From the NCBI GenBank assembly GCA_963745835.1, contig CAVUZH010000017.1, forward strand, positions 1 through 20,130: 20,130 nt of DNA, written 5' to 3'. The translations under genes were made by a program, and so were the position numbers. Shown here in pieces: positions 1,109 to 19,939 of the stretch. The notes under the pieces were generated by a model, which searched no databases, was not told where the DNA came from, and saw only the letters and a program-made list of their open reading frames with translations. Source of the DNA: an uncultured delta proteobacterium (lineage in GTDB: Bacteria > Desulfobacterota > Binatia > UBA9968). Position 1 is the first letter of the stretch. Each line of letters starts with the position of its first letter.

Positions 1109-1171
1109 CTTCTTACAATGTCGATAACAGTTGAGCAATCGCCGTCTGAACCAACTGTATCGGAGAACAGA

Positions 1172-2206: not shown

Positions 2207-2314
2207 AAGCTGCCGGGCTAATTACACCTAAGGCATCTCTTAAGCATCATTGCGGTGAATCAGCGGATATTTAATTCCAAGACGCATATCTTGAACTTAT
2301 AAGCGAGGTGTCAC

Positions 2315-4011: not shown

Positions 4012-4041
4012 AAATGACCAACACCTTAAGGAGAGCGCGAC

Positions 4042-5052
4042 ATGCCATACGATAGAATATTCGCAGCCTCGTTTTCTTTAGCGATCTTTTTCATCTGGAC
4101 TCATTGCACTCGCGCTGCCGAGCCGATGGAAGAAGCCAGGAAGGAAGGTGAGGTCGTTTTCTACGGCAATGTGCGCCAAGAGCATATCACTAAGCTCAAT
4201 GAATCCTTCCAAAAAAAATATCCTTTTATCAAAGTTCAGTATCTCCGCGCAGGTCCTCTGGCGGTTATGAACCGAGTCATGACAGAAGCACGAGTTGGCA
4301 GCCGGCTTGTCGATGTTATCAATCTCGATGTCTTCAACTCCTGGGTATTAAAGGAAGCCGGACTGCTGCAGCCTTATAAATCCAGAGAGACCGAAGCTTT
4401 TCCGGAACAATACCGCGATCCCTCAGGGCTCGTGCCTTGCTGCATGTACGTCTCAAGCAACGTCATCGGCTATAACACCAAACTTGTTGCTCCACACGAA
4501 ATACCTAAAACGTATAACGATCTGCTCGATCAAAAATGGAAGGGAAAGATCGGTCTTAAAAGCGACGACTCGAAATGGTTTGCACCGCTTGTTTGGATTT
4601 GGGGCAGGGACAGAGCCGTCAACTACTTTCGCGGTCTCATCAAACAACAACCCGTGCTCCGCGAGGGAATTTCGATTAATGGCCAGCTGTTGGCGGCTGG
4701 TGAAGTAAGTGTATTTGTAAATATCGCCGGCGATGTCGTCCTGAATCTGCAATCGGTTGGCGCTCCCGTGGAGATAGTCCAAGCAGCGCCTTCGATCTTC
4801 CGCCCTGGGAATTTACTCTTAGCCAAGAACGCCCCTCATCCCAATGCCGCAAGATTGTTCATGGACTACGTTCATTCAGCCGAAGGTCAACAGGTCTTAG
4901 CGGATTTGGGCCGAGAGGTGGCAAGACCGGGCATCAAGATGAAATACCCGCGGCTCCAACAAACGAGCAACCTCGTCCCAGTCAAGCCTGAAATGGCGAA
5001 AAACTATGATGAGCTACTTAAGCTATACGAGTCGATTCTTAAGAACGGGTAG
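4042..5052 (+). CDS. ABC transporter substrate-binding protein, Fe3+/thiamine/polyamine-like (FbpA/AfuA-type)
   Basis: RBS AAGGAG; signal peptide; motifs EARKEGEVVFY, YNTKLV...PKTYNDLLDQKWKGKI and APHPNAARLFMDYVHSAEGQ. Ligand not determinable. Confidence 0.9.
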   Translation: MPYDRIFAASFSLAIFFIWTHCTRAAEPMEEARKEGEVVFYGNVRQEHITKLNESFQKKYPFIKVQYLRAGPLAVMNRVMTEARVGSRLVDVINLDVFNSWVLKEAGLLQPYKSRETEAFPEQYRDPSGLVPCCMYVSSNVIGYNTKLVAPHEIPKTYNDLLDQKWKGKIGLKSDDSKWFAPLVWIWGRDRAVNYFRGLIKQQPVLREGISINGQLLAAGEVSVFVNIAGDVVLNLQSVGAPVEIVQAAPSIFRPGNLLLAKNAPHPNAARLFMDYVHSAEGQQVLADLGREVARPGIKMKYPRLQQTSNLVPVKPEMAKNYDELLKLYESILKNG

Positions 5053-5070
5053 GAGAGTGAATTCATTGCC

Positions 5071-6051
5071 ATGATGGGAATAATCACAGTCGTCTTAATG
5101 CTCGTCTGCTTGCTGATGCAACCAGCCTTGGCTGCCGACAAGATTCGGATCGGATACTCCGGCTTAAGCCCGGCCACCGGGATGCTATGGGTTACTCAGG
5201 AGGCTAAGCTCTTCGAAAAGAATGGTCTTGCTCCCGAAGTGCTGTTCCTGCGTAACAACCTGGGCCAGGCGGCATTGATCGCGGGGGAAATCGAAATGTG
5301 CGGTTATTCCGCAAGCCTGTTGGCGCCCGCGCGTGTGCAAGGAGCCGATCCGTTGATGATCGTGAGCTTTCAGAAAAAGCTAAACTATCGTCTGGTGGTT
5401 CGGCCGGAGATTCGGACCTTGGAGGATCTCAAAGGCAAGGTTCTCGGGGTTACCCGTTATGGCACGGTGAACGATTGGACGATGCGACTGCTGCTCAACA
5501 AGCTGGGAATTAACCCCGAACGGGATGTCAGGTTGATTCAGGTAGGGGATTCGGCTCCCGCCGTCGCGACGTCGCTCATTGCCGGCAAAACGTTTGACGG
5601 CGCCCTGCTTCAGCCGCCTTTTTACAATAAGGCCGTGGAAACCGGTATGCGGGTCTTTGCCAATATGGAAGAGATGGACATTGCATTTCAGCAGACAGGG
5701 CTCAACACCACGCAGAGGTATATCACCAAAAATCCCGATATAGTACGCCGCGTCGTGAAGTCGGTCGTAGAGGGCGTGCATTTGATCCATACTAATCCAG
5801 CGCTGGCGAAGCGCGCGATCAGCCGTTACATGCAGATCAAAGATGAGAAGGCGGTCGAGGAGTCCTATCAGCAGCTGAAATCGACTTCTGAAATTAAACC
5901 TTATCCTTCGGCGGAGGGCTTCAAAACGATATTGGATGACTTGGCTAAAAAACTCCCGGCCGCGCGCACGGCAAACCCTCGGGACTTCATGGATGCGCGG
6001 TTTATTCAGGAACTGGACAAATCGGGATACATCGACGGCTTGTACAGGTGA
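5071..6051 (+). CDS. ABC transporter substrate-binding protein, NitT/TauT family
   Basis: Signal peptide ending ALA-ADKIRIGYSG; LKGKVLGVTRYGT; C-terminal FIQELDKSGYIDGLYR. Close paralog of the gene at 18072. Confidence 0.92.
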   Translation: MMGIITVVLMLVCLLMQPALAADKIRIGYSGLSPATGMLWVTQEAKLFEKNGLAPEVLFLRNNLGQAALIAGEIEMCGYSASLLAPARVQGADPLMIVSFQKKLNYRLVVRPEIRTLEDLKGKVLGVTRYGTVNDWTMRLLLNKLGINPERDVRLIQVGDSAPAVATSLIAGKTFDGALLQPPFYNKAVETGMRVFANMEEMDIAFQQTGLNTTQRYITKNPDIVRRVVKSVVEGVHLIHTNPALAKRAISRYMQIKDEKAVEESYQQLKSTSEIKPYPSAEGFKTILDDLAKKLPAARTANPRDFMDARFIQELDKSGYIDGLYR

Positions 6052-6075
6052 TTTCGATGAATTGAAGGAGCAGAA

Positions 6076-7161
6076 ATGCTGAGGAAACAATCTTGGAAAA
6101 TAACGGTTCTGGTCGTTTCTATTTTCTCCTTGTTCGGCTCCCATTCCGGACTGGTGCTCGCGCAGAGCCGCAGCGAGACGCTGCAAGCGATCTCTAAATT
6201 AAAGGGAAACGAAAGAGAAACAAAGCTTCGGGAAGGTGCCCGCAAAGAGGGAAATCTGATCTGGTATTCGAGCACCACCGCGGAAGATTCATTGGCACTG
6301 AATCGCAAATTCCAGGAGATCTATCCGTTCGTGAAGGTGCAGCATCTCCGCGCGCCGAGTGAGAAGATGATCGAAAGGATCCTGCTTGAGTCGCGGGCAG
6401 GCAGCTTCAAAGCCGATCTTGTTGCTCTGCCGGAGATCGAGCTGACGGTTTTGACCCAAAGAAAATTACTGTTGAAACATGCCGGTTTAGAGCACGAGGC
6501 GTTTCCCGCCGATGTCAAAGACCCGATGGGTTACTGGACGGGAATCTATGTGACTGCCTGGGTACTCGCCTATAATACCAATCTGCTGACAGCCCAGGCC
6601 GCGCCGAAAACCTATGCCGATCTGCTTAATCCCAAGTGGAAAAAACTGATGGGAATGGACACTGAACCTTACTCCTGGTTCATCACTTCCTTCCGCTATC
6701 TGGAAAGCCGGCAAGGCACGGCTGGAGCAACGGAATATTTCAAACGGTTGGCGTCTCAAGAGCTCGAATGGCGCAAAGGCCACAGCCTGATCGGTCAACT
6801 CATCGCGGCAGGGGAGTTCCCCATCGGCGTGGAGATGCAGGCCGGCTCGGTGGAGCGACTCAAGGCGCAGGGCGCTCCCGTCGATTGGGTGGCATTGGAT
6901 GGAGTCATGCCGATTAACAACGTTGGCATCAGCGTTACAACGGCGGGAGCCAATACACATGCTGCTTTGCTATATTATGATTTTCTTCTCTCCCGCACGG
7001 GCATGGAGATTATGAAATCCCGTAATAGAATTCCCACCCGTCCCGACGTTACAGTTCCCTATCTGAAGCCCTACAAGCTGCTGCCTTTCGATGCCCAGGT
7101 GGTGGATCACTTCGATCGTTACATCACCCAATTCAAAGACCTACTCAAACCCCGATCATGA
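6076..7161 (+). CDS. ABC transporter substrate-binding protein, Fe3+/thiamine/polyamine-like
   Basis: RBS AAGGAG; signal peptide; motifs GARKEGNLIWYS, YNTNLL...PKTYADLLNPKWK and AALLYYDFLLS. Paralog of the gene at 4042. Confidence 0.9.
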   Translation: MLRKQSWKITVLVVSIFSLFGSHSGLVLAQSRSETLQAISKLKGNERETKLREGARKEGNLIWYSSTTAEDSLALNRKFQEIYPFVKVQHLRAPSEKMIERILLESRAGSFKADLVALPEIELTVLTQRKLLLKHAGLEHEAFPADVKDPMGYWTGIYVTAWVLAYNTNLLTAQAAPKTYADLLNPKWKKLMGMDTEPYSWFITSFRYLESRQGTAGATEYFKRLASQELEWRKGHSLIGQLIAAGEFPIGVEMQAGSVERLKAQGAPVDWVALDGVMPINNVGISVTTAGANTHAALLYYDFLLSRTGMEIMKSRNRIPTRPDVTVPYLKPYKLLPFDAQVVDHFDRYITQFKDLLKPRS

Positions 7162-7439
7162 ACCGTCCATCCGCTCCTGGTTGAAGAACCGTTACCTTAC
7201 AACGGGCTCAAAATGCTGATGGTACCTGATCTGGAAATCGGCCGAAAGGTAATGGAGGCTCGCTGCGCAGTCGAGGAGCTGGACGGAATTCTCGAGCCCT
7301 TTCCGAAGCTGCGGCTTTATGCGCCAATGTATCGGTCTCCCTCACTACTTTGCCGATTGCGCAAAAGTCGCGTTTAAAATTCCTATTCCCGTCATCGAAC
7401 TTGCTGCAGGCCGCCATTTGCCGCTCAAGAGCAGCAGGA

Positions 7440-7462
7440 AGTCCGGGCAAAAGCCCCGGACT
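7440..7462 (-). terminator. Possible terminator hairpin between convergent operons
   Basis: AGTCCGGG...CCCGGACT 8-bp inverted repeat about 20 nt downstream of the stop at 7482. No strong U-tract. Confidence 0.4.
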
Positions 7463-7481
7463 GTGCCAAACGGATACTATC

Positions 7482-8915
7482 CTAGTAACGTGCCGCCAGC
7501 CATTCAGCGAAGAAATCATTTTCCCTGCCCTGGGTGTCGCCAAAGTAGGCGTTAGCCTGCGCTGGCGTGAGGGTGGGATCGATCTGGAGAGCGCAGGGAG
7601 CACACGGCCCACCGCCGTGTACGGCGCCTTCATTGAACGCAATCGTCTTGTCTAAGGTGGTAGCAGTATCATAAATGATTTCGTCCGGCCTGATGAAGTA
7701 ATGAGCGGTATGGGCGACAATGACCAGCGGCACTGTAATTCCCTTAACGTTTGTGACTGATGAGGTCGCGGACGAATCGTAATCGATTCCTGTCATGTCG
7801 TCCTTGGTGAGCGTGTACTTCCCAGGCGTACTGCGCAGCGCATGGGCTCCCAGCCAGACACGCACGTTGGCCGCGATCGAGGAATCAACGCAATCCAAGG
7901 CCTGATCCCTCTCCCCGGCAGGGACTCGAACCGACTCGATAATTTGCACGGGTCTTGTGCCGTCACGAGCCAAGAGCGTGTGTGCTCGCTTGGTGTATTT
8001 CAGCAAGCTTATATCGGGCTGCCACAACCTGGCGTTTTGAGAGCCGATGACAGTAAAGGGAATGTCATCTCCCAGTTGGCTCGGATCACGGGTGTCTCTT
8101 ATCTTTTTGCGGAGCAGCCGCAAGGCTTCATTAAGGATATCTTTATTGCGAATGGCTTGGTGAGTGGTGAAGGTCTTGTTGAACTGCTTGCTGTAGGTTG
8201 CGGCGTCCGTGTCCGGGTCGTAACCGTTGGCTTCAGCGAACATATCAAAAGCTGGCTGCCGCGGCTCGCAAGCATTGTTGTGGATTGCTGGGTCGACATT
8301 CACAAATGTCGCCAGCGCGTCTCCCAGGTGAGCATCGCGAAGTATCACGCCGTCCGCCTTGGGCAAGTTGTGCAGGTTCGTATCATCGCAAGGAATGATC
8401 TTCTCCGGTCCCTGGCACACCCCCGGGCCGTTTTCTGCGACATTCTGATAAAACAGCATCAGAGGTGCTCCCATGCTAAAGCCTAACAGCACGACTTCAG
8501 TAACGGGTGGTTGCTCTGGTGTAGCAGCAATGTTTTTGAGGTAATTTATCGAGGATCGAATACCAGGAGCATGCTGCTCATAGCCGTAGTACTCAAGATC
8601 ACGGCCGCTAAACTCACTGTTGGTGCAGAACACCGTGAATCCTCGCTCGGCCAACGGGGCGCAGACGGCATTGTTGATATAGCGCGAATTAGGGTGCATG
8701 ACGAGTATGCCGACATGGGCTCGCCCGAGCACGTTGGCGGTGGGTCGCCGCAATGTCGCCGCCTCTAAGTTGAGATTCGCTGTTGCGCAATTTTGTACAG
8801 TGCTACATATGACACTAGTTGTGATCGGCTGAAGCTGAGCTTCCGATACCGAGATCCATGCAATGCTACAAATTACGATGACTGCAAAACCGAAAGTGAA
8901 TATTCGTTTAAACAT
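7482..8915 (-). CDS. Secreted alpha/beta hydrolase (putative esterase), paralog A
   Basis: Start at 8915 (MFKRIF) after AGGAG; signal peptide; nucleophile elbow LLGFSMG; DAH after strand 6; C-terminal EGAVHGGGPCAPC; ends WLAARY. Confidence 0.8.
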   Translation of the reverse strand: MFKRIFTFGFAVIVICSIAWISVSEAQLQPITTSVICSTVQNCATANLNLEAATLRRPTANVLGRAHVGILVMHPNSRYINNAVCAPLAERGFTVFCTNSEFSGRDLEYYGYEQHAPGIRSSINYLKNIAATPEQPPVTEVVLLGFSMGAPLMLFYQNVAENGPGVCQGPEKIIPCDDTNLHNLPKADGVILRDAHLGDALATFVNVDPAIHNNACEPRQPAFDMFAEANGYDPDTDAATYSKQFNKTFTTHQAIRNKDILNEALRLLRKKIRDTRDPSQLGDDIPFTVIGSQNARLWQPDISLLKYTKRAHTLLARDGTRPVQIIESVRVPAGERDQALDCVDSSIAANVRVWLGAHALRSTPGKYTLTKDDMTGIDYDSSATSSVTNVKGITVPLVIVAHTAHYFIRPDEIIYDTATTLDKTIAFNEGAVHGGGPCAPCALQIDPTLTPAQANAYFGDTQGRENDFFAEWLAARY

Positions 8916-8977
8916 ATTTTCTCCTAAAAGCATTCGCGGCTATTTGGCTACATTTCGAATGAGATTTCCCATCTGGA

Positions 8978-10318
8978 CTAGAACCGGCCGTTCGCCCACG
9001 CAGCAACGTAATCGTAAATGTTTTTACGCGCGTTCGAATAGTCAACCCCGGTGACCGCCGTACATTCGGTGCAACCTGTCCCTCCGTGAGTTGCTCCTTC
9101 AATTACGATGAAGTCCTTATCAGCCATTGCCCCATTCTCAAAAAGTATTTCATTGTCACGGATGAAATAGTGCGCTCCCATAGCAGCTATCAGGACTGGA
9201 ACATGGATTTCGCGAATGGCGCAGACGGTGGTGTCGTTTGCCGAACACCAGTCAATCCCATCCAGCGAGTGGGTCGCTCGAATTGCATTGGCAGTCAAGA
9301 ACGAAGTGATCCTTAGCTCACTGACCCCGGCACTATTTCCAGAGCCCATTAGTCGATCGTCTTCCGCGATACCCGGATCGGGAATGCGTACAGAGTTGAC
9401 GACTTGTGTCACGATTGTACCATCGTTCTTCAGGAGCTTTGCAGGATTCAAAGTTCCGCGGTGAACGCCCGTGCTTGCGTCAGACAGTCGAGCGGCCGTC
9501 CTATAGATGGTGAACGTATCCTCATCGACAGGTTGATATGTTCCTTCTGCCATTCTTCGCTTGATTTCCAGCGCCTTGTCGATGAGATTATTCATGCGAA
9601 CAGCCTGAGCCCGGAAATACCGGTCTTGAAACTCCATGGAATAAACGGAATCCCCGTTGGGGTTGAATCCGTTTTTTTCGCTGAACGGATCAAGCCTAGG
9701 ATTGATTGATTGAAACGGCCTATTTTCATTCATCACAGATGCGTTAACACTGCGCAGTGTGTTCACCGAAACCCCTGGGTGGGCGTCCAAATAAACAATG
9801 CCGTTAGCTCTATCTGTGGGCACAAAGCCAGCCAGCCTCTCAGAACTGCACTCAACGATCTTGTTAGGGCCTTGGCAATATGCCGGGCCATTTTCGGCTA
9901 CCGCTTGATAAAAGGACATGACGGGGCCACCACCACTGGGACCAATGAGAATGACTGTGCTGATTCCCGGCTGCGACCGCAGAAAGCGAACGCCGGAGCG
10001 AACGTCGAGAGCAATGTCCTGCCAATCCACTTGCGCTTCATTATTCGCGAACCGCACGTTCATGCCGAGAACCATAAAGCCACGACTTGACAATTCGGTC
10101 GTCGACGTGTGCGTCACGTAGCTGCTGTTACGATGAGTCACCAAAAACGCGATCTGCGGCGGTGGACCCGAGTTAGGGACGTAAAGTGCGCCGATTGCGC
10201 CGCTGCCCAACGGGATGAATCGTGGATTGCTTTGGGCTAATGCGCTGGCTGCGCCGTTGGTGATTCCGAAAACTAAAAATAAGCCAAACAACATTAACAG
10301 CACTCGCAGTTTTGACAT
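8978..10318 (-). CDS. Secreted alpha/beta hydrolase (putative esterase), paralog B
   Basis: Start at 10318 (MSKLRV) after GGAGGG; signal peptide ending ALA-Q; elbow LIGPSGG; shares FYQ-VAENGP-CQGP-KI-C, DAH-G, AHYFIR and EGATHGGTGCTEC with paralog A. Confidence 0.8.
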   Translation of the reverse strand: MSKLRVLLMLFGLFLVFGITNGAASALAQSNPRFIPLGSGAIGALYVPNSGPPPQIAFLVTHRNSSYVTHTSTTELSSRGFMVLGMNVRFANNEAQVDWQDIALDVRSGVRFLRSQPGISTVILIGPSGGGPVMSFYQAVAENGPAYCQGPNKIVECSSERLAGFVPTDRANGIVYLDAHPGVSVNTLRSVNASVMNENRPFQSINPRLDPFSEKNGFNPNGDSVYSMEFQDRYFRAQAVRMNNLIDKALEIKRRMAEGTYQPVDEDTFTIYRTAARLSDASTGVHRGTLNPAKLLKNDGTIVTQVVNSVRIPDPGIAEDDRLMGSGNSAGVSELRITSFLTANAIRATHSLDGIDWCSANDTTVCAIREIHVPVLIAAMGAHYFIRDNEILFENGAMADKDFIVIEGATHGGTGCTECTAVTGVDYSNARKNIYDYVAAWANGRF

Positions 10319-10435
10319 GAGTAACCCTCCCTTTTGTGTTTTCGGATTCCTGGTACAAGAAACCTCTGCCAAGTTAAGACTTACGGACGCTGTACCGGCG
10401 GTCCTCTGCTCATCTCTAATCGAGATTGTGATGAA

Positions 10436-10483
10436 CTGTCTAATGCATTTTTAGAATGATGATTATTGACTTAATGTATGACG
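10436..10483 (-). promoter_or_regulatory. 48-bp LysR-type operator/promoter element, copy 2
   Basis: Reverse complement CGTCATACATTAAGTCAATAATCATCATTCTAAAAATGCATTAGACAG matches copy 1 at 44/48 positions without gaps. Points toward the hydrolase pair, with a LysR remnant on the other side. Confidence 0.85.
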
Positions 10484-10527
10484 CCGCTTAGACGCAGGGG
10501 GCATTTGATTCTAATAGGAGGATCGTT

Positions 10528-10618
10528 GTGACACTTTCATCAGCTCAGGACATTCGATTGAGTGGCTAGACATCTAAACATTACTAATGAACAGAGTGAT
10601 TATCATAGATCCCAGTGA
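10528..10618 (+). pseudogene. Decayed LysR N-terminal fragment
   Basis: After AGGAGG: GTG ACA CTT (extra T) CAT CAG CTC AGG ACA TTC GAT TGA GTG GCT AGA CAT CTA AAC ATT ACT AAT, i.e. MTL/HQLRTFD*VARHLNITN versus MTLHQLRIFDSVARHLNITN in the intact LysR. One frameshift and a nonsense codon. Confidence 0.85.
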
Positions 10619-10671
10619 TGAAGGACGGGTTCAAACGGTTTGACTAATTGAACAGCTTGAGGCTTGAACGT

Positions 10672-11658
10672 CTATTTTCCCCTTGCCTTCCTCTCCTGAG
10701 CAAGCTGCTCTAGGAAAGATAAATCCAATAACTCGAGAACGTTCAATTTCATCGAGGAGAGATTCTTATCGTTGGCAATCACGTTCTCCATCGCTTTAGC
10801 CGTAACGATCGGCAATCCCGGAGTTACCTGACTATAGACTCTGCGGGTCTCTTCCAGCTCCTCGACTACGTTGGAACGATAGTATTCACCCAAATATTTA
10901 AGAACTCGATCTTTGTTTCTCTCGTCCCGGTAAAAGTCCATTCCATCGGCCAATCCGCGCATAAAGTTCATGACCGTCTCCCTATCGGTGCGGATGAACG
11001 ACCGCATGGTCACCGGTCCGGCAATTGTGTATTCGAAATCCTCCTTGGAAAAATCGAGAAACGTCGGATAACCGGCTTTGCGCGCCTTCAGCGTAAAAGG
11101 CGATTGCAGAACCGTCGCCTGAATCTGTCCCAGCGTCAATGCTGTCCAACGATCTCCCTGGCCGCCAATGCCGACGATCTGGACGTCTTTATCAGGATTT
11201 AACCCGAGTCGCCGAACGGCGACGCGGGCGATAAAGTCCGTGCTCGATCCAATTTGACTGACGCCGATTCGCTTTCCTTTGAGATCGGCATGCTGCTTGA
11301 TCGTTGGATGCGCCGCTACGATGTAGTCCAAGCGATTGCCGACGGCGCCGATTATCTGAAACTCCTTGGCGCCCTGCGCCCACGCCGCGACGACAGTGGA
11401 TGCGCCTTGGAGCTGCAGCGGCAGGTCGCCCGAGAGAGCAGCCTGAATTCCCATGAGGCCGCCGCGAATGTAGATGGGTTCGAGCTTCAAGCCGTATTTT
11501 TCGAACGAGCCCGAGCGGTACGCAACCCAAAAGTAACTAGAGGAACCGCCCAGCGGATACCCAACCTTAATTTCCCGCAACTTGCTATTCTGGGCAGAAG
11601 CAAAGCAGGGAAAAACCAACATGCAGCACAGCAGGTATAAAATTATCTTGCGTTTCAT
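10672..11658 (-). CDS. ABC transporter substrate-binding protein, NitT/TauT family
   Basis: Signal peptide MKRKIILYLL...ASA; LKGKRIGVSQIGSSTDF; GLNPDKDVQIV; FMRGLADG. Confidence 0.92.
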   Translation of the reverse strand: MKRKIILYLLCCMLVFPCFASAQNSKLREIKVGYPLGGSSSYFWVAYRSGSFEKYGLKLEPIYIRGGLMGIQAALSGDLPLQLQGASTVVAAWAQGAKEFQIIGAVGNRLDYIVAAHPTIKQHADLKGKRIGVSQIGSSTDFIARVAVRRLGLNPDKDVQIVGIGGQGDRWTALTLGQIQATVLQSPFTLKARKAGYPTFLDFSKEDFEYTIAGPVTMRSFIRTDRETVMNFMRGLADGMDFYRDERNKDRVLKYLGEYYRSNVVEELEETRRVYSQVTPGLPIVTAKAMENVIANDKNLSSMKLNVLELLDLSFLEQLAQERKARGK

Positions 11659-11718
11659 CTTTTGCTGCGTTACTGCCTAGCCACGTCGTGAATACCAGGC
11701 GACTCACGATAACCCGCG

Positions 11719-13545
11719 TCACTGTGTCCTGAACCCATTGCTCTGACTCCCCGGATTTGCATTCGGATTTTGGGAGTTCGACGGATTGTTGGAATTACCG
11801 CCTCCGGGAGCGCTGTTGGGGTTATCAGAAGCCAGATTGTGCCAGCTCTGACGGTTACCTTCGCACGTAAAGTTGCTTGCGACGTTGATATCGCCGGAAC
11901 CGATATAGCGGGTCTGTTTCGGATAGGGGCACAGCGGACGGCTGCGGGATGCCACTCCGAAGTAGCCGGGGTTGCTGGCCGTTGCGATAACCTTATCCGG
12001 CGCGACGCCGTTTTCCACCCAATTGATAATCTCTGGAAACATTTCGAAGTCATCTGTTGAAGGCCCACCACTACAATGATTCATGCCAGGCACCACAAAC
12101 AACCGTACATAGTTCGCGGCCTTATGGTCTTGGGCAAGCACGTCGTTGTACCAGTCGATCGTTGCATTAACTGAAAACGCGCCGTCCGCTCCACCGTGGT
12201 AAACGATCATTTTGCCGCCGTTAGCCTTGAACGCGGATAGGTCGGTGGAGTCGACTGATCCCAGCTCAGCCGCCGATTCGGTATATATGCCCCCTGTTTC
12301 GTGTATCCTTTCAAGGAAGGTATCGAAATCGAAATCCAGCTGGAACGGAACACAGTCTATGGCGGTGACAAACGGTATCAATGGATGGGCAGTATACCTG
12401 AGCGCTGATGATGCACAGCTCCTGGTTACTCTCTGGGCATTGTTGGTGGTCGCGTTAAACGAACCAAGCACCCAAGAGCGCCAGCCTTGGTTGAAGGTGG
12501 AGCCTGACCGACCGCCGATACCCGGATCCCATGGCCAGTTGGCATACAGCTGGGTTCCGTCGGAGTCCTTCATTCCCGCCATCACAGTCTGAAGCGCCGC
12601 GATCTGATCCGCCGTCAGGCAATCGGCGGTTTTTGCGCCAGTGCACGTCACCGCCGCCAGAGCGGCATTCACCCGACCTGACTTGCATGCCGGCATGTTG
12701 TCGACGATCCCGTCTTTAAGGCCATCCAGCCGATCGCATGCCGCCAAAACGGCATTCCGTATTAGTAATAGATCCTCGTCGGTGTAGATTTTATTGATGA
12801 GGGGGTTGCCTGCGGAGTCAAAGCTCGTCGCTATTTTAGCGAAAACTTGTGTGGCATAAGCGCCGTTCGCCGACGAGTGTGGCCGCAGAATGCCGGGATC
12901 TCCGGCGACGATGCCGTCGAAATGTTTCGGAAACGTCTGCGCCATCAGCATCGCTTCCGCCCCACCTTGGGAACACCCGACATAATAAGAAAATAGGGGC
13001 TTCTGTCCATAATAGATGCCAACCAACTCTTTCCCCACTCGAGCGGTCTGGTCATAAGAGTTATAGGAGAAATCGATTCTGGCTTGTGGATCGATGGAGA
13101 ATACGTTCGTGCCACCTACATTGGGATCAGTGTTGGTCTCATTATCATGTCCGGAATCAGTGCCGATCGTGACGTAGCCTAGCGGCAGAATAGTCGTCGG
13201 ATCTTCAACGGTACCGTTGCTGCCGCCGCCGCCGCCCATGTAGAATCGCTCGTTCCACGCGGAGGGCATGCGTACACGGAACTTGATGGCATAAACCTGT
13301 CCGAGCACACCTACTCGCTCGTTGATCTTGCCATCGACAAGACAATGCTCTGGCAGACTCTGGGTAGCCGGGGTAAGCACAGCCGACGTGATAACGACCT
13401 TCGGGATAGTGGGGCTGGTAAACTCCGTAAGGGAACTGCAGGCGACAATGGGAGCCGGAGTAGCGTGTGCGTCGGGGATCGCCGCCATCATCATAATAGC
13501 CCCGCCAAGACACCCGAGTAGTCGCGCCTTCGTAAAGATGTTCAT
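11719..13545 (-). CDS. Tannase/feruloyl esterase family hydrolase, MHETase-like
   Basis: Start at 13545 (MNIFTK) after GAGGAG; signal peptide; catalytic GCSQGG (Ser codon 12970-12972), YHGGADGAFS and PGMNHCSGGP (the CS-D-HC tannase signature); RPLCPYP; lid segment NQGWRSWVLGSFN...NNAQRV. Confidence 0.93.
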   Translation of the reverse strand: MNIFTKARLLGCLGGAIMMMAAIPDAHATPAPIVACSSLTEFTSPTIPKVVITSAVLTPATQSLPEHCLVDGKINERVGVLGQVYAIKFRVRMPSAWNERFYMGGGGGSNGTVEDPTTILPLGYVTIGTDSGHDNETNTDPNVGGTNVFSIDPQARIDFSYNSYDQTARVGKELVGIYYGQKPLFSYYVGCSQGGAEAMLMAQTFPKHFDGIVAGDPGILRPHSSANGAYATQVFAKIATSFDSAGNPLINKIYTDEDLLLIRNAVLAACDRLDGLKDGIVDNMPACKSGRVNAALAAVTCTGAKTADCLTADQIAALQTVMAGMKDSDGTQLYANWPWDPGIGGRSGSTFNQGWRSWVLGSFNATTNNAQRVTRSCASSALRYTAHPLIPFVTAIDCVPFQLDFDFDTFLERIHETGGIYTESAAELGSVDSTDLSAFKANGGKMIVYHGGADGAFSVNATIDWYNDVLAQDHKAANYVRLFVVPGMNHCSGGPSTDDFEMFPEIINWVENGVAPDKVIATASNPGYFGVASRSRPLCPYPKQTRYIGSGDINVASNFTCEGNRQSWHNLASDNPNSAPGGGNSNNPSNSQNPNANPGSQSNGFRTQ

Positions 13546-13635
13546 GACTGATCTCCTCATAATTCTGGGAATCAACCGTTGGCAGAACTTTTCACCGAAG
13601 TTTTTCGACATGAGCATTTACTCAGAGTCGCTAAG

Positions 13636-13683
13636 ATGTCCAATGCTTTTTTTGAATAATTGTTATTAGCTTTTTCTATAACG
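13636..13683 (-). promoter_or_regulatory. 48-bp LysR-type operator/promoter element, copy 3
   Basis: Reverse complement CGTTATAGAAAAAGCTAATAACAATTATTCAAAAAAAGCATTGGACAT; 35/48 identical to copy 2 without gaps; perfect dyad TTAT-N11-ATAA. Lies between the esterase gene and a LysR remnant. Confidence 0.7.
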
Positions 13684-13761
13684 GGGATCCCCTTACTAGC
13701 GGAGCAAATCAATGTAGTGGGATACGTTTTTCTTCAGTGAGTCTGTCCGAGGGGGACGGGT

Positions 13762-13851
13762 ATGACCCTTTATCAACTTAAGGTATTTGAAGCTGTTGCC
13801 AGTCATCTGAACGTCACGCGTGCATCCCTAGAGCTACACACAAGTCAGCCC
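13762..13851 (+). pseudogene. Truncated LysR HTH fragment
   Basis: MTLYQLKVFEAVASHLNVTRASLELHTSQP (30 codons) aligns with the intact LysR N-terminus, then homology ends abruptly. The frame stops at 13897-13899. Confidence 0.88.
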
Positions 13852-13852
13852 A

Positions 13853-13980
13853 AGACCCGGTATCAAGATGAAATATCCGAGTTTAAAACAAACGAATAAT
13901 CTTGAGCCGGTCGACCTGAGATGGCGGCGAACTATGAGGACTTGCTGAAGCTGTACAAATCAATTCTAAAAGGCGGTTAG
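13853..13980 (+). pseudogene. 3' remnant of an Fe/polyamine-type SBP gene, paralog of 4042..5052
   Basis: RPGIKMKYPSLKQTNNLEPV/(1-nt deletion)/PEMAANYEDLLKLYKSILKGG* versus RPGIKMKYPRLQQTSNLVPVKPEMAKNYDELLKLYESILKNG* at 4924-5052. Confidence 0.88.
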
Positions 13981-14016
13981 CGAATCGCGCCCTTTCTTCT
14001 CAAATTTCGGCTTCCG

Positions 14017-14904
14017 CTATTGTAAACCCAGCACTCGCGCCGGAACCTTTTGGGCCATGGTTTTGACCTCGTCGACGCTCATACCATGAAATAGTAACTG
14101 GCCGATGAAGCTGCGAAAGTTCTCCGCCGGCAATGGACTAAATGCCTGGCCGCCGTCCACCGTCATGGCGCACCGCTCAACGCCAACGCCGCGCGCCGCT
14201 TCGATCAACGGCTTCGGGTTCATCCCAGGACGATACACCAGCTCGATAATGGCGCCTTGGCCGGCCATCTGCCGCCGTAACTCCAGGGGCGTGTCGTCGC
14301 GCACATGGCTGACGACAATTCTCTGGATGCCGTGGCGCTGCGCTTCGGCTACCAGCATAAGATGTTCCTCCACGGAGATGTGACCGGTGGCGACCACCAT
14401 GTCGTTGGCCTTGGCGATGTCGAGTATCTCGTGCATCTCGGGCAACAACCGGCCGCGCTCATCGACGACTACGATACCAGGGCGGCCACGCAAACCCACC
14501 GGCGGGCGCGCCTTAGAACCGCTGCGTCGGCCTGAAGCGTGATACTCAGCGTTCCAGGTCGGAGCGAACAAAACCTTGCTGCCGATCTTCACCGCTACCT
14601 CTACGGCGAATGGGTTTAGGCCTCCGAGCGAGTAGTTCAACACCACCGTGCCGAACAAACTCACTTCGGGAAACAGTGGCTGAATCGTTCGTACCAGAGC
14701 GCCGGTAGGCCAGTGATGGCTCTTCATCACCACAGCGCGCATACCCGCCTCTTTTGCCTGGCGCGCCGTGCCGATGCCGTCGAGCCTTCGGGCCACGGCG
14801 AGATCAGCGGTCGGAGGCATGTCTGGGCCGAAATGGACATGCATGTCGATAGCGCCATGCATAATCTCGTCGATCAACGCGCTAAAATTTTCTTGCGTCA
14901 GCAT
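14017..14904 (-). CDS. Metal-dependent TIM-barrel hydrolase (amidohydrolase-like; DUF6282-like)
   Basis: GAIDMHVHFGPD (D-x-H-x-H), VMKSHH, ATGH, VSH and TVDGGQ metal-ligand pattern. Likely start 14904 after AAAGGA. DUF assignment is from memory. Confidence 0.78.
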   Translation of the reverse strand: MLTQENFSALIDEIMHGAIDMHVHFGPDMPPTADLAVARRLDGIGTARQAKEAGMRAVVMKSHHWPTGALVRTIQPLFPEVSLFGTVVLNYSLGGLNPFAVEVAVKIGSKVLFAPTWNAEYHASGRRSGSKARPPVGLRGRPGIVVVDERGRLLPEMHEILDIAKANDMVVATGHISVEEHLMLVAEAQRHGIQRIVVSHVRDDTPLELRRQMAGQGAIIELVYRPGMNPKPLIEAARGVGVERCAMTVDGGQAFSPLPAENFRSFIGQLLFHGMSVDEVKTMAQKVPARVLGLQ

Positions 14905-14989
14905 AATAGATCCTTTCGAACTTACTCGTCGTGGTCGCGCTGTATAGCAGATCCGTCGCAATGTGGAAAGCATGAATCACACGATCTCT

Positions 14990-15037
14990 CGTTATGAATA
15001 AAGTCAATAACCATCATCCAAAATAAGCATTAGACAG
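14990..15037 (+). promoter_or_regulatory. 48-bp LysR-type operator/promoter element, copy 4
   Basis: CGTTATGAATAAAGTCAATAACCATCATCCAAAATAAGCATTAGACAG; 38/48 identical to copy 1 without gaps; perfect dyad TTAT-N11-ATAA. Upstream of the second selenoprotein gene. Confidence 0.8.
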
Positions 15038-15123
15038 CCGGTCAAAATCCCAATAAGAGTTGATATGGTGATAAACGATTTGGGAAAGAGGTTAGTAATT
15101 TCAAACTCAACAGGGGGAAACAA

Positions 15124-15675
15124 ATGATTATCTTAAGCCCGGAAGGGAAGGCGCGAATATCATCGGAGCGGATTCCCGCCTTACCACGATTTGCAGATCT
15201 GAATGGCAAGACTGTGGGATTTTTGGACAACAGCAAGCCCAATAACGATCTATTGCAGTCGCGTTTTGAGCAGCTGCTGCGACAAAATTGCGATGTGGGT
15301 GGCGTTGTCCGGCGACGAAAGCTGACCGCGCAGCAAGGGGCGCCCAAAGCGTACCTCGATGAACTCGCTGCTCAGTCCGATGTCGTTATCAGCGGACTGG
15401 GAGATTGAGGGTCGTGCACATCGTGGAGTATCCACGATTCCATCGAACTGCAAAAAAGAGGCAGACTCGCGGTCACCGTCGTCTCTCATCCTTTTGAAGC
15501 GCTCGCGAAGTCGGAGCGCGAAGCTTTCGGCGCTCCCGATTCCCCTATCTTGATCGTGCAGCATCCGATCGGCACGGTGAAACCGGAGGAGGTTAAAAAG
15601 CGCGCTGACGCCGCCTTCGACAAGCTGCTCGAAGCCTTGCTCCATTCGCACCAGGGCACAAATGGAGCGTCATAA
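15124..15675 (+). CDS. UGSC-family selenoprotein, copy 2 (183 aa, Sec at codon 95, TGA 15406-15408)
   Basis: DLNGKTVGFLDNSK...DVVISGLGD-U-GSCTSWSIHDSIELQKRG...IVQHPIG, open to TAA at 15673-15675. Homology to copy 1 continues on both sides of the TGA. Confidence 0.9.
15420..15438 (+). promoter_or_regulatory. Putative bacterial SECIS hairpin, copy 2
   Basis: ATCGTGGA-GTA-TCCACGAT: perfect 8-bp stem starting 11 nt after the TGA, with pairing-preserving changes relative to copy 1. Confidence 0.8.
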
Positions 15676-15725
15676 GCGGTATACGGTTTAGCAACAGTAC
15701 TTCGGAGACATTGGGGATAAGGAAG

Positions 15726-16778
15726 ATGACACAGCAAGAACTCCAAGCGGAACGGATTGAAATTGAAGATGATCTTTGGGCGGCTAACGATTTTTTCGAA
15801 ACGAAGGGTTGGAGTGACGGACTACCGATCATTCCTCCTACGGAAGAGCGTGTCGCGCGGATGCTAGGCGCGACTAGGCGCAACCGGGATGAGGTAATCG
15901 GCACGGTGCCACCGAAGTGGGCGCCAGCTACTGTGGAGAAAATTGCCATCAACGCCGTCATGGCTGGCTGCAAACCTGAATACATGCCGGTGCTTATCGC
16001 CTCTGTCGAAGCCATCACCGAACCAAAACTTAATCTTTATGCACTGCAAGCAACCACTGGCGGGCCGGCGGTGATGCTCATCATCAACGGTCCGGTGCGG
16101 CATCAGATTCAGGTCAATGGTGAGTCGAATGCGCTCGGCGAAGGCTGGCGCGCCAACGCGACGATCGGTCGTTGCATTCGTCTCATCCAGCGAAACATTG
16201 GTGGCTCCTATCCAGGAACGACTTGCAAGGCAACGCTTGGTTGGCCTGGCAAGTACTCCATCTGTATCGGTGAGAACGAAGAGGCTAGTCCGTGGGAGCC
16301 GCTGCATGTCGAGCGCGGCTTTGACAAGAATTCGAGCACTGTCACCGCGATCAGCGCGGACGGTTCCGTTCGCGCTTCTGATCTTGACAGCACGAACGCC
16401 GCAGGTGTGCTGACCAATTTTGCTCAAAAAATGGATGGGCCTTCAGGACCGGAAGCCATCATGGTGGTCTGCCCGGAGCACGCCAAAATCATCGCCAATG
16501 ACGGCTTCAGTAAGAAGGATGTGCAACGGTTTATTTGGGAGCGAGCAGCTTACCGCATGAAAGATTTGCCGGAAGAAACTTTTTATCAAAGGGTAAAGCG
16601 TTGGTCACACCGAAATCTAACCCGTGAGAGTGTCATTCCTGTGACCGATCGACCCGAGGATATTGTCGTTGTTGTGGCAGGTGGTGACGGTTCTCAATCG
16701 CAGTATATCCACGTGTGGGGTCAGAGCACTCCCGAGGGCGGATCGACACGGTCGGTAACCAAAGCCGTACGGGACTAG
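15726..16778 (+). CDS. Uncharacterised UGSC-associated protein (SDGLP...NAVMAGC family), copy 2
   Basis: GWSDGLPIIPPTEERV, IAINAVMAGCKPE, RANATIGR, GWPGKY, GENEEASPWEPLHVERGF, VVVAGG; paralog of 2935..4011. ATG at 15726 follows AAGGA (the track starts at TTG 15711). Confidence 0.88.
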   Translation: MTQQELQAERIEIEDDLWAANDFFETKGWSDGLPIIPPTEERVARMLGATRRNRDEVIGTVPPKWAPATVEKIAINAVMAGCKPEYMPVLIASVEAITEPKLNLYALQATTGGPAVMLIINGPVRHQIQVNGESNALGEGWRANATIGRCIRLIQRNIGGSYPGTTCKATLGWPGKYSICIGENEEASPWEPLHVERGFDKNSSTVTAISADGSVRASDLDSTNAAGVLTNFAQKMDGPSGPEAIMVVCPEHAKIIANDGFSKKDVQRFIWERAAYRMKDLPEETFYQRVKRWSHRNLTRESVIPVTDRPEDIVVVVAGGDGSQSQYIHVWGQSTPEGGSTRSVTKAVRD

Positions 16779-17074
16779 CCTAATCTCACGCCGTCACCAC
16801 TACGGCGACTGCATTGATAGCGGTGATTGGCGCACAGCTTTTGGAATTTGCCCTGATACATTTATGCTAGGCTGGCTAGGGTATCAGCATCTTAGCCAAC
16901 GAGCGGCAGATCAATGTGCCGCAACGACGGGAAGCGACCGTTGCTGTTTAAAGCCATAGGACATCGGTTCGGCCTCACACGCTTGATCCTAAACTTTCTC
17001 AGCCTCACTTCATTTCATTTCACTAGCTGTATAAGCATGAACGAAAAATGACTAAGAACACTTCGGTAATCACT

Positions 17075-18040
17075 ATGAAGAGAATCTTTTATTTAATAGT
17101 GGCCCTGCTCTCCTCGGCTAACTCCACCGAGGCCGCCGACAATCTTCGTATTAGCTATTCAGGACCATCCATAAGCAACGCGCTTCTTTGGGTAAGCAAG
17201 GAAGGTAAGCTTTTCGAAAAAAACGGTCTCAATGTGGAATTGATTTATCTTGCCGGATCTCTAGGACAAAGCGCGCTGATTGCCGGCGAAACTCAATTCG
17301 CCGTTTACACCGGCCTGCTGATGACGCCTGCGCGGCTGCAAGGTGCGGATGTTACCATGGTCGCGAGCTTCCTTGATCATTTGTTATCGAGGCTTGTTGT
17401 ACGTCCTGACATCAGGTCTGCTGCAGATCTTAGGGGGAAACGTCTTGGCGTCACGCGTTTCGGTACGGCGTCGGATTTTGGCATGCGTTTAATGGTTTCC
17501 AAACTAGGCTTAAATCCTGACAGAGACGTTTCCATCCTACAAATCGGCGACAACCCAACACGCCTGGTCGCACTTCAAGCCAAAAGCATTGACGGCGCAA
17601 TCTTCGACCCGCCAGAGTACAAAAAAGCTGTCGAAGCCGGTGGCCATGTCTTGTTTAACCTAGAAGAGACGATGATTCCATACCAGCACGCCGGCCTCGT
17701 AACCACCCGGAAATTTATCAGCAACCGGACTGATATTGCACGGCGAGTTGTAAAAACTATCGTTGAGGGCGCAGCGCTCGTGCGGAAAGAGCCCGTTATA
17801 ACCAAACGAGCTTTGTCAGCGCGTTTGAACGTCAAAGACGAACGGGAATTGGAAGAGACCTATCAACTGTTGCGTGGATTCACGCAACCAAAGCCCTATC
17901 CCAGCCTAGCGGGGTTTCGCGCGATCCTAGACGATTTGTCTAGGAAAATGCCGGCAGCAAAGGGCGCTGATCCCAAAGACTTTTCCGAACCGCGATTCAT
18001 AGAGGAGCTTGATCGAAGTGGTTACATCAACAGCCTCTAA
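17075..18040 (+). CDS. ABC transporter substrate-binding protein, NitT/TauT family
   Basis: Signal peptide MKRIFYLIVALL; LRGKRLGVTRFGTASDF; FIEELDRSGYI. Start could be 17048 or 17075. Confidence 0.9.
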   Translation: MKRIFYLIVALLSSANSTEAADNLRISYSGPSISNALLWVSKEGKLFEKNGLNVELIYLAGSLGQSALIAGETQFAVYTGLLMTPARLQGADVTMVASFLDHLLSRLVVRPDIRSAADLRGKRLGVTRFGTASDFGMRLMVSKLGLNPDRDVSILQIGDNPTRLVALQAKSIDGAIFDPPEYKKAVEAGGHVLFNLEETMIPYQHAGLVTTRKFISNRTDIARRVVKTIVEGAALVRKEPVITKRALSARLNVKDERELEETYQLLRGFTQPKPYPSLAGFRAILDDLSRKMPAAKGADPKDFSEPRFIEELDRSGYINSL

Positions 18041-18071
18041 AAATAATCCCACGATTGGCTTACTAGTATCT

Positions 18072-19031
18072 ATGATCCTGCTCGTTCTGGTAGCGAGTAG
18101 GTCATCATCCGATGCTGCGGACAAGATTCGCATCGGCTATTCTGGCGTGACGGTCAGCAACGCGATGTTGTGGGTCACCGACGAAGCCAAGTTATTTCAG
18201 AAAAATGGTATTGAACCGCAAATTCTCTACCTGCAAACCACTCTCGGACAAACGGCAATGATCGCCGGCGAGGTCGACATGTGCGTGTACTCCGGCAGTT
18301 TACTTTCATCCGCTCGACTGCAGGGTGCCGACGTAGTAATGGTGACCAGTTTTCTCAACAAACCGCTCTATCGACTTGTTGTGCGTCCGGAGATTAGGAC
18401 TGTTGCGGATCTCAAAGGTAAGAGACTCGGTATTACACGTTTCGGCACAGTCACTGATTCGATGTCCCGACTTTTGGTCGGGAAACTCGGGTTGGATCCA
18501 GATAAAGACGTCTCCTACATCCAAGTTGGAGACGTCCCGATCCTACTGGCATCCCTTACCACGGGTAGAATCATTGATGGGGCAATCATTCAGCCACCTT
18601 ACTACCTGAAAGCCCTAGCCTCCGGTATGCGAGTTTTAGTTAATATGCAAGACATGGATATTTCCGTGCAGCAAACCGGTCTGAACACGACGCAAAAATT
18701 TATCTCCAAGAATCCCGACGTCGTGCGCCGCGTCGTAAAGTCGGTGATCGAAGGCATTCATATGATGCGTACGAACCCATCTGTGGCCAAGCACGCGATC
18801 TCGAAGCGTATGCAGATCAAAGATGAAAAAGAAATCGAAGATACCTATTTGCTGCTTAGAAGTTTCGTGCCGATAAAGCCCTATCCGACGTTGGACGGTT
18901 TTAAAACTATCTTTGACGATCTTTCGAGGAAGGTTCCCGCGGCAAAAACCGCCAATCCGAAGGAATTTGTTGATACCCAGTTTATTGATGAGCTTGACCG
19001 GTCGGGCTACATCGACAGCTTGTACAAATAG
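18072..19031 (+). CDS. ABC transporter substrate-binding protein, NitT/TauT family
   Basis: AADKIRIGYSG; LKGKRLGITRFGT; FIDELDRSGYIDSLYK. Start uncertain (ATG 18072; homology suggests 18051). Confidence 0.88.
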   Translation: MILLVLVASRSSSDAADKIRIGYSGVTVSNAMLWVTDEAKLFQKNGIEPQILYLQTTLGQTAMIAGEVDMCVYSGSLLSSARLQGADVVMVTSFLNKPLYRLVVRPEIRTVADLKGKRLGITRFGTVTDSMSRLLVGKLGLDPDKDVSYIQVGDVPILLASLTTGRIIDGAIIQPPYYLKALASGMRVLVNMQDMDISVQQTGLNTTQKFISKNPDVVRRVVKSVIEGIHMMRTNPSVAKHAISKRMQIKDEKEIEDTYLLLRSFVPIKPYPTLDGFKTIFDDLSRKVPAAKTANPKEFVDTQFIDELDRSGYIDSLYK

Positions 19032-19035
19032 CCTT

Positions 19036-19939
19036 ATGGAACAATATGACATTGTTATTGTCGGCGGCGGCATGGCCGGGCTGAGTGCTTGCCATGTATG
19101 GTGGATGGCTTGGTCGCAAGGTATTACTCGCCGAGCGGCAAATGTTTGGCGGTCAAATCATCAACGCGGATCAGGTGGAAAACTATCCCGGCTTTCCTGA
19201 CGGGGTACTCGGCGCTGACCTCGTCGCGCAGGTGCGAGCACAGGCGCTGAAGTTTGGCGCAACGATGCAATATCTTGAGATCACCTCGATCGAAAAACCT
19301 GATAGCGCGTTTGTCCTTCAATCGAATGACGGTGTTTATGGCGCGCAAAGCGTGATCGTCGCTACCGGGGGAAATCCGCGTCGACTCGGGATTAAAGGCG
19401 AAGTCGAGCTTGAAGGCCGAGGCGTTTCCCGCTGCGCGACTTGTGATGGAGCCTTCTTCGCGGAAAAACCGGTGGTTGTTCTCGGCGGCGGTGATACAGC
19501 TTTGGATGAAGCGCTGTATCTTGCAGGTATTGCAAATAAGGTAGCTGTCATTCATCAGACTGAACAACCGACAGCGAGTGCTGCGCTTGTGAGGCGCGCG
19601 AGAGGAAATGACAAGATCGAGTGGCTTTCCCGCGCTTCAATTACGGAAATCATCGGCAGCGAATCCGTTGAAGCCTTGCGACTCAGCCAAGGTGACGAAA
19701 TCGCCACGGCAGCCATGTTCATTGCCATTGGTTTTGAACCGGAAACGGCCCTATTGAGAAGCCTCATCGAGATCGACCGTATGGGTCATGCACCCGTCGA
19801 TCTTCATATGCAAACGTCTGTTCCTGGTTTATTCGCGGTCGGTTCCGCTCGACAAGGAAGCTCGGGACAAATCTCATCTGTCACCGGCGATGGGGTTACA
19901 GCCGCCATTTTTTCTGATCGTTACATTTCTGCGAAATAG
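19036..19939 (+). CDS. trxB: Thioredoxin-disulfide reductase-like flavoprotein with a +1 frameshift near the 5' end (pseudogene or sequencing error)
   Basis: MEQYDIVIVGGGMAGLSA begins at 19036 and continues as AMYGG...GGQI...VENYPGF...GRGVSRCATCDG...GGGDTALDEA...TSVPGLFAVG in the next frame. One extra T at 19089/19090; removing it gives 300 aa. Confidence 0.85.

Follow-up and report, generated by a model that had tools for sequence, protein, structure and literature searches.

The gene described here lies on the reverse strand of a 20,130-nucleotide stretch of DNA (hereafter the window: positions 1 to 20,130 of contig CAVUZH010000017.1, assembly GCA_963745835.1) from an uncultured bacterium of the Binatia. 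It encodes an intact serine esterase of the tannase family, belonging to the bacterial subfamily that also contains MHETase, the Ideonella sakaiensis enzyme acting on mono(2-hydroxyethyl) terephthalate (MHET). An initial annotation, made from the sequence alone, had presented the product as a close member of the MHETase clade with an altered substrate pocket; it is instead a distant relative of MHETase, outside the MHETase clade. The esterase represents a small new clade; judging by its residues, its chemistry is that of MHETase and it probably grips an anionic acyl group in a similar way, with several contact positions of the pocket being different. We consider it likely that the enzyme is exported, disulfide-rich and calcium-binding and that it hydrolyses esters of anionic aromatic acids. 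The broader proposal of the initial annotation, a hydrolase of aromatic-acid esters, appears sensible, because the catalytic apparatus is intact and an anchor of the Arg411 type (MHETase numbering) is present.

The enclosing open reading frame spans 11719..13617. The start annotated initially, at 13545, is the correct one, since its methionine is common to six close relatives (P0003-P0007 and P0060) and a GAGGAG motif stands upstream. From there the frame is intact and yields a product of 608 amino acids (P0001). Its residues 68-561 match the Pfam family PF07519 (Tannase; profile positions 1-489 of 490) with a score of 363.8 bits, where 29.8 is the gathering threshold, while an NCBIfam scan of the product gave no match. 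The CS-D-HC signature of tannases, noted initially, is confirmed by HMMER and MAFFT alignments, which place C191-S192, D454 and H490-C491 on C224-S225, D492 and H528-C529 of MHETase. All ten cysteines that form the five conserved disulfides of MHETase are identical in the esterase, as are five lid positions that we take to be the MHETase calcium site. The AlphaFold2 model (predicted local distance difference test score, pLDDT, 85.0; predicted template modeling score 0.86) is disordered (pLDDT <50) only at residues 1-23 and 567-608 and predicts an α/β-hydrolase core with a large inserted lid. In Foldseek comparisons, its target-normalised template modeling (TM) scores are 0.88-0.90 to MHETase chains and 0.77-0.80 to fungal FaeB/FaeC.

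The esterase is probably exported through a Sec signal peptide: read by eye, the N terminus shows K6 and R8, a hydrophobic run and then AHA before T29. Unlike MHETase it has no lipobox, and Cys12 is found in just one of the eight members of its clade. The C-terminal tail, which lies beyond the fold, is rich in His, Gly, Arg and Asp in P0003-P0007 and absent from P0008 and P0009, which carry an N-terminal PF19878 domain. We rejected the possibility that a frameshift has turned the His/Gly-rich tail of the relatives into the one seen here, as the other two frames translate to no such sequence.

The relation to MHETase was examined against the sequence in the genome record of Piscinibacter sakaiensis 201-F6 (L022; P0122), and equivalences were read from three alignments (HMMER, BLASTP and a 190-row MAFFT alignment). 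The individual residue equivalences given in the initial annotation hold in all three. Those retained are W397 (W358 in the window protein), R411 (R372), S419 (S380) and F495 (F457); those changed are S131 (to G107), E226 (to Q193), F415 (to S376) and S416 (to C377). Also shared with MHETase are S225 (S192), Gly132, Gln410, Val412 and Ala494. Beyond position 413 the loop contains gaps and the alignments diverge: HMMER sets F424 opposite T385, MAFFT opposite Y384. Every sequence segment cited initially as matching MHETase occurs in the protein, but these segments are mostly conserved across the subfamily in a 34-row consensus, only NNAQRV being specific, and they are therefore no evidence of closeness to MHETase. 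Among solved structures, I. sakaiensis MHETase accounts for the six best sequence matches (E 2.6e-161 to 4.4e-160, 538-542 bits), followed by fungal feruloyl esterases at E ~1e-34.

Sequence identity separates the two enzymes. BLASTP gives 256 identities over 514 positions (50%), and identity over 558 aligned columns is 47.1%. In the 190-row alignment MHETase ranks only 123rd among the 182 rows outside the query’s clade, at 50.8% compared with a median of 52.4%. A search of a 5.8-billion-protein set returned at least 2403 proteins at E <= 0.001; the 120 listed all score at least 550 bits, above MHETase’s 540, and the nearest among them are eight metagenome-only proteins at 78-86% identity, followed by a continuum at 47-57%. 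Relatives are encoded in 265 stretches among one-genome-per-species records, where the best named ones, at 51-56%, belong to Ramlibacter, Variovorax, Pigmentiphaga and Azohydromonas. MHETase itself is less than 53% similar to most of the 6,671 family members, barring homologs at 81% and 73% (PMC7568301). The validated MHETase homologs are 73-81% identical to MHETase (PMC7568301), a level that the window protein, at 50% by BLASTP, does not reach.

Phylogenetic analysis leads to the same placement. Trees were built with FastTree (191 rows) and with IQ-TREE under the posterior mean site frequency model (62 hand-picked rows, in a quick and a careful run, with the genome’s own distant paralog as the root). 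Proteins shorter than 500 residues (e.g., P0010, P0033 and P0060) and the partial loci L046, L076 and L077 were left out, and the 62-row tree also omits the long-branch rows L080 and L082. The query clade comprises eight metagenome-only members (support 100/100) on a stem of 0.64 changes per site and is nested within sets of 30 (98/92) and 35 (99/95) rows, mainly Burkholderiales. MHETase groups apart, with 99%-identical copies, a 74%-identical Hydrogenophaga/Paracidovorax type and P0098, and the query falls outside this clade in both the FastTree and the IQ-TREE analysis. The approximately unbiased (AU) test rejects the best tree in which the query clade and the MHETase clade are held together (log-likelihood difference 123, p = 0.00016). 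Placement outside the MHETase clade is the very outcome that the initial annotation had named as a refutation, and identity and rank likewise fail to support its claim of a close, MHETase-clade enzyme. As a separate observation, products 99.0-99.8% identical to MHETase are encoded at 3001-4536 of three records, a Xenophilus aerolatus chromosome (L019) and metagenome-assembled genomes of Rubrivivax (L020) and Piscinibacter (L021). Position 131 is Gly in L019 and L020 and Ser in L021 and strain 201-F6; the S131 adaptation therefore varies across genera.

The substrate pocket has to be described differently from the initial annotation, which took MHETase as its point of reference and called the pocket altered. 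G107 and S376 are common family states, and it is MHETase that holds the uncommon ones: position 131 is Gly in 91% of the family members, Ser131 and Phe415 being unusual (PMC7568301). In MHETase, S131G leaves ~3% of the efficiency, F415S lowers activity, E226T retains ~50% and F495I cripples the enzyme (PMC7568301). The two MHET-adapted residues, Ser131 and Phe415, are both missing from the query; its Gly107 and Ser376 also occur in the validated Hydrogenophaga homolog, and a lower efficiency is therefore expected, with activity still possible. Of the residues with assigned roles in MHETase (Arg411, Ser416, Ser419, Phe495, Ala494, Gly132, Leu254 and Trp397; PMC8540959, PMC7568301), the set supporting the Arg411 anchor would be partly retained, with Arg372 and Ser380 present and Ser416 replaced by Cys377. 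Among the predicted hydrophobic ring contacts (Phe495, Ala494, Gly132, Trp397 and Leu254), four of five are kept, and Leu254 corresponds to Arg221.

The pocket loop (MHETase 390-425) is the only region in which MHETase ranks nearest to the query, at 57.1% identity compared with a median of 44.1% over 182 relatives. Gln410 occurs in 8/8 rows of the query clade, 10/11 rows of the MHETase clade and 1/171 others. Position 411 is Arg in half of the query clade and Lys in the other half; Arg is found there in all 11 MHETase-clade rows and in none of the 171 others, where Lys (110 rows), Ile (26) and Asn (18) prevail. The Arg411 state needs two changes on the careful tree. Taken with the AU result, this makes close kinship with MHETase a poorer explanation than either convergence on the anchor or its survival from a deep ancestor.

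Further changes, absent from the initial annotation, distinguish the clade as a whole. Arg229, present in all 182 other rows, is Ala (Ala196) in all eight members, and the same 8/8 applies to Leu254 to Arg (Arg221), Gly414 to Arg (Arg375), Trp398 to Val and the loss of Trp420. C377 (position 416) and C398 are each found in 8/8 clade rows and 0/182 others; as the two cysteines were gained as a pair, a sixth disulfide is suggested, which would pin down the pocket loop. Gln193, on the other hand, is confined to the window protein, with Glu in the 189 other rows. Its codon, CAA, is one base away from the Glu codon GAA, and a sequencing error was considered and rejected, since CAA is unchanged in contigs from four of four runs in four studies.

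These features can be assembled into a working mechanism. Ser192, activated by His490 and Asp454, would attack the ester carbonyl next to the retained Cys191-Cys491 disulfide, with the backbone NH groups of Gly108 and Gln193 forming the oxyanion hole. A flat acyl group would be held between the core (Gly108, Ala456 and Phe457) and the lid (Trp358, Arg221 and Ser376), and Arg372, backed by Ser380, would grip an anionic group at its far end, as Arg411 does in MHETase. Around this site the clade would gain arginines 221 and 375 and lose the otherwise invariant Arg229, and a Cys377-Cys398 bond probably staples the loop. The released acid is probably imported through a binding protein encoded by a presumably co-transcribed gene, and two neighbouring hydrolases, which we term unk464 and unk483, may act on the same ester-linked material. 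Such a pocket would probably prefer the ester of an aromatic acid that bears a carboxylate or another anionic group, a substrate different from MHET.

The esterase gene is followed by a gene for an NMT1/SsuA-type solute-binding protein and by those of the two secreted hydrolases (Table 1). The binding protein scores 73 bits against TIGR01728, below its cut-off. unk464 and unk483 share 31% identity, and both have signal-like N termini and GxSxG elbows; neither has a match in Pfam, NCBIfam or the PDB sequences. Homologs of unk464 number at least 2142 and are mostly unnamed. Its AlphaFold2 model (pLDDT 90.6) retrieves only generic α/β-hydrolases in Foldseek (target-normalised TM <=0.69), the best folds being monoglyceride lipases, and unnamed α/β-hydrolase clusters in an Atlas search. 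The NCBIfam scan likewise returned nothing for three other products of the window (DUF6282, unk2935 and unk355).

Table 1. Positions of the esterase gene, its functional elements and linked features in the window
Feature	Position	Strand	Remarks
Esterase gene, 608 codons plus stop	11719..13545	-	Tannase/feruloyl-esterase family, MHETase-like subfamily
GAGGAG ribosome-binding site	13553..13558	-	8-13 nt upstream of the start codon (ATG, 13545)
Probable Sec signal peptide, residues 1-28	13462..13545	-	Read by eye
Codons for C191-S192-Q193, nucleophile elbow GCSQGG	12967..12975	-	From alignment
Pocket loop, residues 351-386 (MHETase 390-425)	12388..12495	-	Holds W358, Q371-R372-V373, R375, S376, C377, S380
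Codon for catalytic Asp454 (MHETase D492)	12184..12186	-	Asp in 190/190 rows
Codons for catalytic His490 and Cys491 (MHETase H528, C529)	12073..12078	-	From alignment
Asn/Ser/Pro-rich C-terminal tail, residues 563-608	11722..11859	-	46 residues, low complexity, beyond the fold
NMT1/SsuA-type solute-binding protein gene	10672..11658	-	Pfam NMT1; 60 nt downstream of the esterase gene, same strand
unk464, secreted α/β-hydrolase	8978..10318	-	Undescribed family; GPSGG elbow
unk483, paralog of unk464	7482..8933	-	GFSMG elbow
Shared 48-nt upstream element	10436..10483	-	Before unk464; copies at 1061-1108 (+) and 15001-15037 (+)

The linkage of these genes recurs elsewhere. Two metagenome contigs (L099 and L100) carry orthologs of the esterase, unk464 and unk483 at 84-90% identity, in the orders LysR / esterase / LysR / unk464 / unk483 and unk464 / unk483 / esterase, so that the three genes occur together in three different gene orders, the window included. 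In a genome of the same family but another genus (G030), the esterase ortholog is again followed by an ortholog (84%) of the binding protein. The genome under study (G000) has two tannase-family genes, each abutting a gene of the unk464 family, which is found at just five places in 7.28 Mb; by a rough estimate, chance would produce this adjacency for each tannase gene in <1% of cases. The second tannase-family gene (31% identical) lies in G000:C5:150000-212000, next to another unk464-family member (G000:C5:210388-211668). The same stretch encodes two alpha subunits of the Rieske ring-hydroxylating type together with a protocatechuate-3,4-dioxygenase-like pair, and may be an aromatic-catabolic island. 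In G030:C14:108600-131700 (L098, L086, L120 and L107), the region of the esterase ortholog, four tannase-family genes cluster with unk464- and unk483-like genes.

A short element is repeated upstream of unk464, of a binding-protein operon at 1118 and of an open reading frame at 15124, with a divergent LysR gene at 110-1006. Its copies are 92% identical over 48 nt and 86% over 37 nt, and it is probably a common operator or promoter; its positions suggest that the three units form one regulon. Promoter and terminator scans of 7300-15200 were uninformative, with 5 and 9 sites where shuffled sequences predict 6.4 and 7.9, and Rfam at gathering thresholds detected no RNA family in the window. The 79-nt stretch 15379-15457, also without an Rfam match, is conserved at 82-88% at paralogous places in the same genome (C3) and in four same-genus genomes, far above its surroundings. 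The window is further dense in orphan solute-binding genes at 1118-7161 and 15124-19939 (five of the NMT1 type and two of the SBP_bac_6 type), with no permease or ATPase genes beside them in the window, and encodes two paralogous proteins of no family (2935-4011 and 15711-16778). None of the 14 other window open reading frames scanned is a PETase-type or terephthalate-catabolic gene. Elsewhere in the genome there are dioxygenase genes of the Rieske, LigB and intradiol types, which are not assigned to the terephthalate type and which make the use of aromatic acids by the host plausible.

The source genome comprises 7.28 Mb in 25 contigs (97% complete, 9% contamination), and its RpoB shares 91-98% identity with proteins recorded under the name Candidatus Binatia bacterium. 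Since window positions 14969-19869 are syntenic with two same-genus genomes (73-83% nucleotide identity), the contig belongs to the Binatia lineage; to the left of ~14970, synteny with those relatives is absent. Among 60 related genomes searched, only one, G030, has an ortholog of the esterase (74% identity), and the seven same-genus genomes have none. This patchiness in the host lineage, together with the nesting of the clade among betaproteobacterial sequences, points to a gain of the gene by horizontal transfer followed by fast divergence. Several studies have metagenomes with near-identical DNA, from rhizosphere, soil and winery samples. In one soil metatranscriptome, RNA-library contigs cover six pieces of the stretch with the esterase and binding-protein genes, parts without such contigs in that run (X16) being uninformative either way; since RNA libraries may contain DNA, these contigs hint only weakly at expression.

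Several observations weigh against an esterase specialized for anionic acids. With lysine the majority state at position 411 of the subfamily, a basic anchor is only partly distinctive, and R229A and L254R together might only exchange charges within the structure and leave the substrate unaffected. Binding proteins of the type encoded here are usually tied to sulfonates, not to aromatic acids (the TIGR01728 match is below its cut-off), and a tannase-family neighbour within 1.5 kb exists at only 2 of the 27 returned unk464-family loci (G000 and relatives). Moreover, S131G, F415S and E226T each lower MHET activity in MHETase (PMC7568301), and the ortholog in G030 is interrupted by two internal stops (TAG and TAA). 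The enzyme could instead be an ordinary feruloyl, hydroxycinnamoyl or gallate esterase that accepts neutral acyl groups, Arg372 having no anchoring role. The grouping of the subfamily with proteobacterial feruloyl esterases (PMC7568301), the label of feruloyl esterase given to its relatives in source databases, the soil and rhizosphere setting and the aromatic ring-cleavage genes of the genome all suit such an activity. We nevertheless regard it as unlikely: within the clade, position 411 has either stayed basic or become so again, and the loop has two additional arginines, a combination hard to fit with methoxy- or hydroxy-phenyl acyl groups; in addition, the literature examined contains no demonstrated feruloyl esterase activity for bacterial members near the clade. 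A more elaborate proposal, that the esterase, the binding protein and unk464/unk483 form a natural multi-enzyme system of uncultured soil Binatia, dismantling an ester-linked aromatic polymer or oligomer, is decidedly unlikely in our estimate. The esterase would then be the terminal mono-ester hydrolase, with an independently arisen Gln-Arg-Val anchor, and possible targets would include suberin- or tannin-like material, diferulate-type cross-links that leave a free carboxylate, and the synthetic polyesters poly(ethylene terephthalate) (PET) and PBAT (poly(butylene adipate-co-terephthalate)).

We judge it highly improbable that the protein is a genuine MHETase, a terephthalate mono-ester hydrolase completing PET/PBAT-type breakdown in soil with unk464 and unk483 as polymer- or oligomer-cleaving partners. 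It has in common with MHETase Gln410-Arg411-Val412, Ser419, Ala494, Phe495, Trp397 and Gly132 and the nearest pocket loop of the 182 relatives, while G131 and S415 recur in the L026/L028 type, 74% identical to MHETase, and in the MHET-active Hydrogenophaga homolog (PMC7568301); two secreted hydrolases are linked to its gene, and near-identical DNA occurs in rhizosphere, soil and winery samples. Yet the query lies outside the MHETase clade, its contact shell is changed (Leu254 to Arg, Ser416 to Cys, Gly414 to Arg), the window offers no PETase-like or terephthalate-catabolic gene, and unk464, whose best fold matches are monoglyceride lipases, is unlike cutinase-type PET hydrolases. Nor does the long stem of the query clade suggest a recent adaptation shared with Ideonella. 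That the gene is a catalytically impaired or decaying copy is hardly credible. Gln193 and Ala196 do stand at otherwise invariant positions (Glu226 in 189/189 other rows, Arg229 in 182/182 rows outside the clade), and the G030 ortholog has its two stop codons. In MHETase, though, E226T retains about half of the activity (PMC7568301), and in the window protein the frame is intact and the catalytic and disulfide residues are all kept. Ala196 is fixed throughout a clade that appears to be under purifying selection, because its members otherwise keep 78-86% identity, and the Gln codon is the same in all four runs. An esterase for anionic aromatic-acid esters remains the reading that we prefer.

MHETase is often regarded as a recent and nearly unique invention. 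The presence of a Gln-Arg-Val carboxylate-anchor loop outside the MHETase clade, in an unrelated phylum of uncultured soil bacteria and combined with other pocket changes, makes it possible to ask whether this anchor is by itself enough for activity on terephthalate-type mono-esters, and may help to find a natural substrate among anionic aromatic esters. For an uncharacterised α/β-hydrolase family of more than 2000 members, the recurrent pairing with tannase-family genes provides a first functional context. In practical terms the value is modest, as the mutational data on MHETase make it unlikely that this enzyme would surpass known MHETases. The esterase is worth assaying for the anchor loop that it shares with MHETase, for the pocket changes specific to its clade and for its conserved linkage to a hydrolase family not yet described.

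Compared with I. sakaiensis MHETase (EC 3.1.1.102; PDB IDs 6QZ2 and 6QGA), the window protein has the same Pfam family, fold, triad, vicinal Cys-Cys disulfide and ten cysteines. It differs by S131G, E226Q, R229A, L254R, W398V, G414R, F415S and S416C, and it lacks W420 and the MHETase residues 142-150 and 331-336. In place of the lipoprotein signal of MHETase it has a probable Sec-type signal, and it adds a Cys pair and a 46-residue low-complexity tail. The MHET-active homolog from Hydrogenophaga sp. PML113 (73% identical to MHETase) resembles it in having Gly131 and Ser415, and its kcat/Km on MHET is ~20-fold below that of MHETase (PMC7568301). This homolog, a member of the MHETase clade, otherwise matches MHETase throughout the 6 Å around the ligand, whereas the window protein differs at positions 254, 414, 416, 398 and 229 and is only 45-46% identical to the L026/L028 type.

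A parallel in distance is Mle046, a marine enzyme of Celeribacter manganoxidans. It belongs to the tannase family, has Gly at position 131 and is 46.9% identical to MHETase, about as far from it as the window protein. Mle046 hydrolyses MHET with very low affinity (Km 2.6 mM) and also mono-hydroxybutyl terephthalate (PMC8351946). Because this distant member turns MHET over poorly, weak hydrolysis of MHET in vitro would be plausible for the window protein by analogy, high efficiency not being expected. The thermostable MHETase of PMC13292399 is of a different, small-lid family and has no bearing on it. The fungal enzymes AoFaeB (PDB ID 3WMT) and FoFaeC (6FAT) share its family, CS-D-HC signature and lid architecture, and some members of the family have a sixth disulfide. 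They differ in being 21-23% identical to the window protein, at target-normalised TM scores of 0.77-0.80, and FoFaeC, which has no equivalent of Arg411, binds its benzoate ligand in the opposite orientation (PMC13618265).

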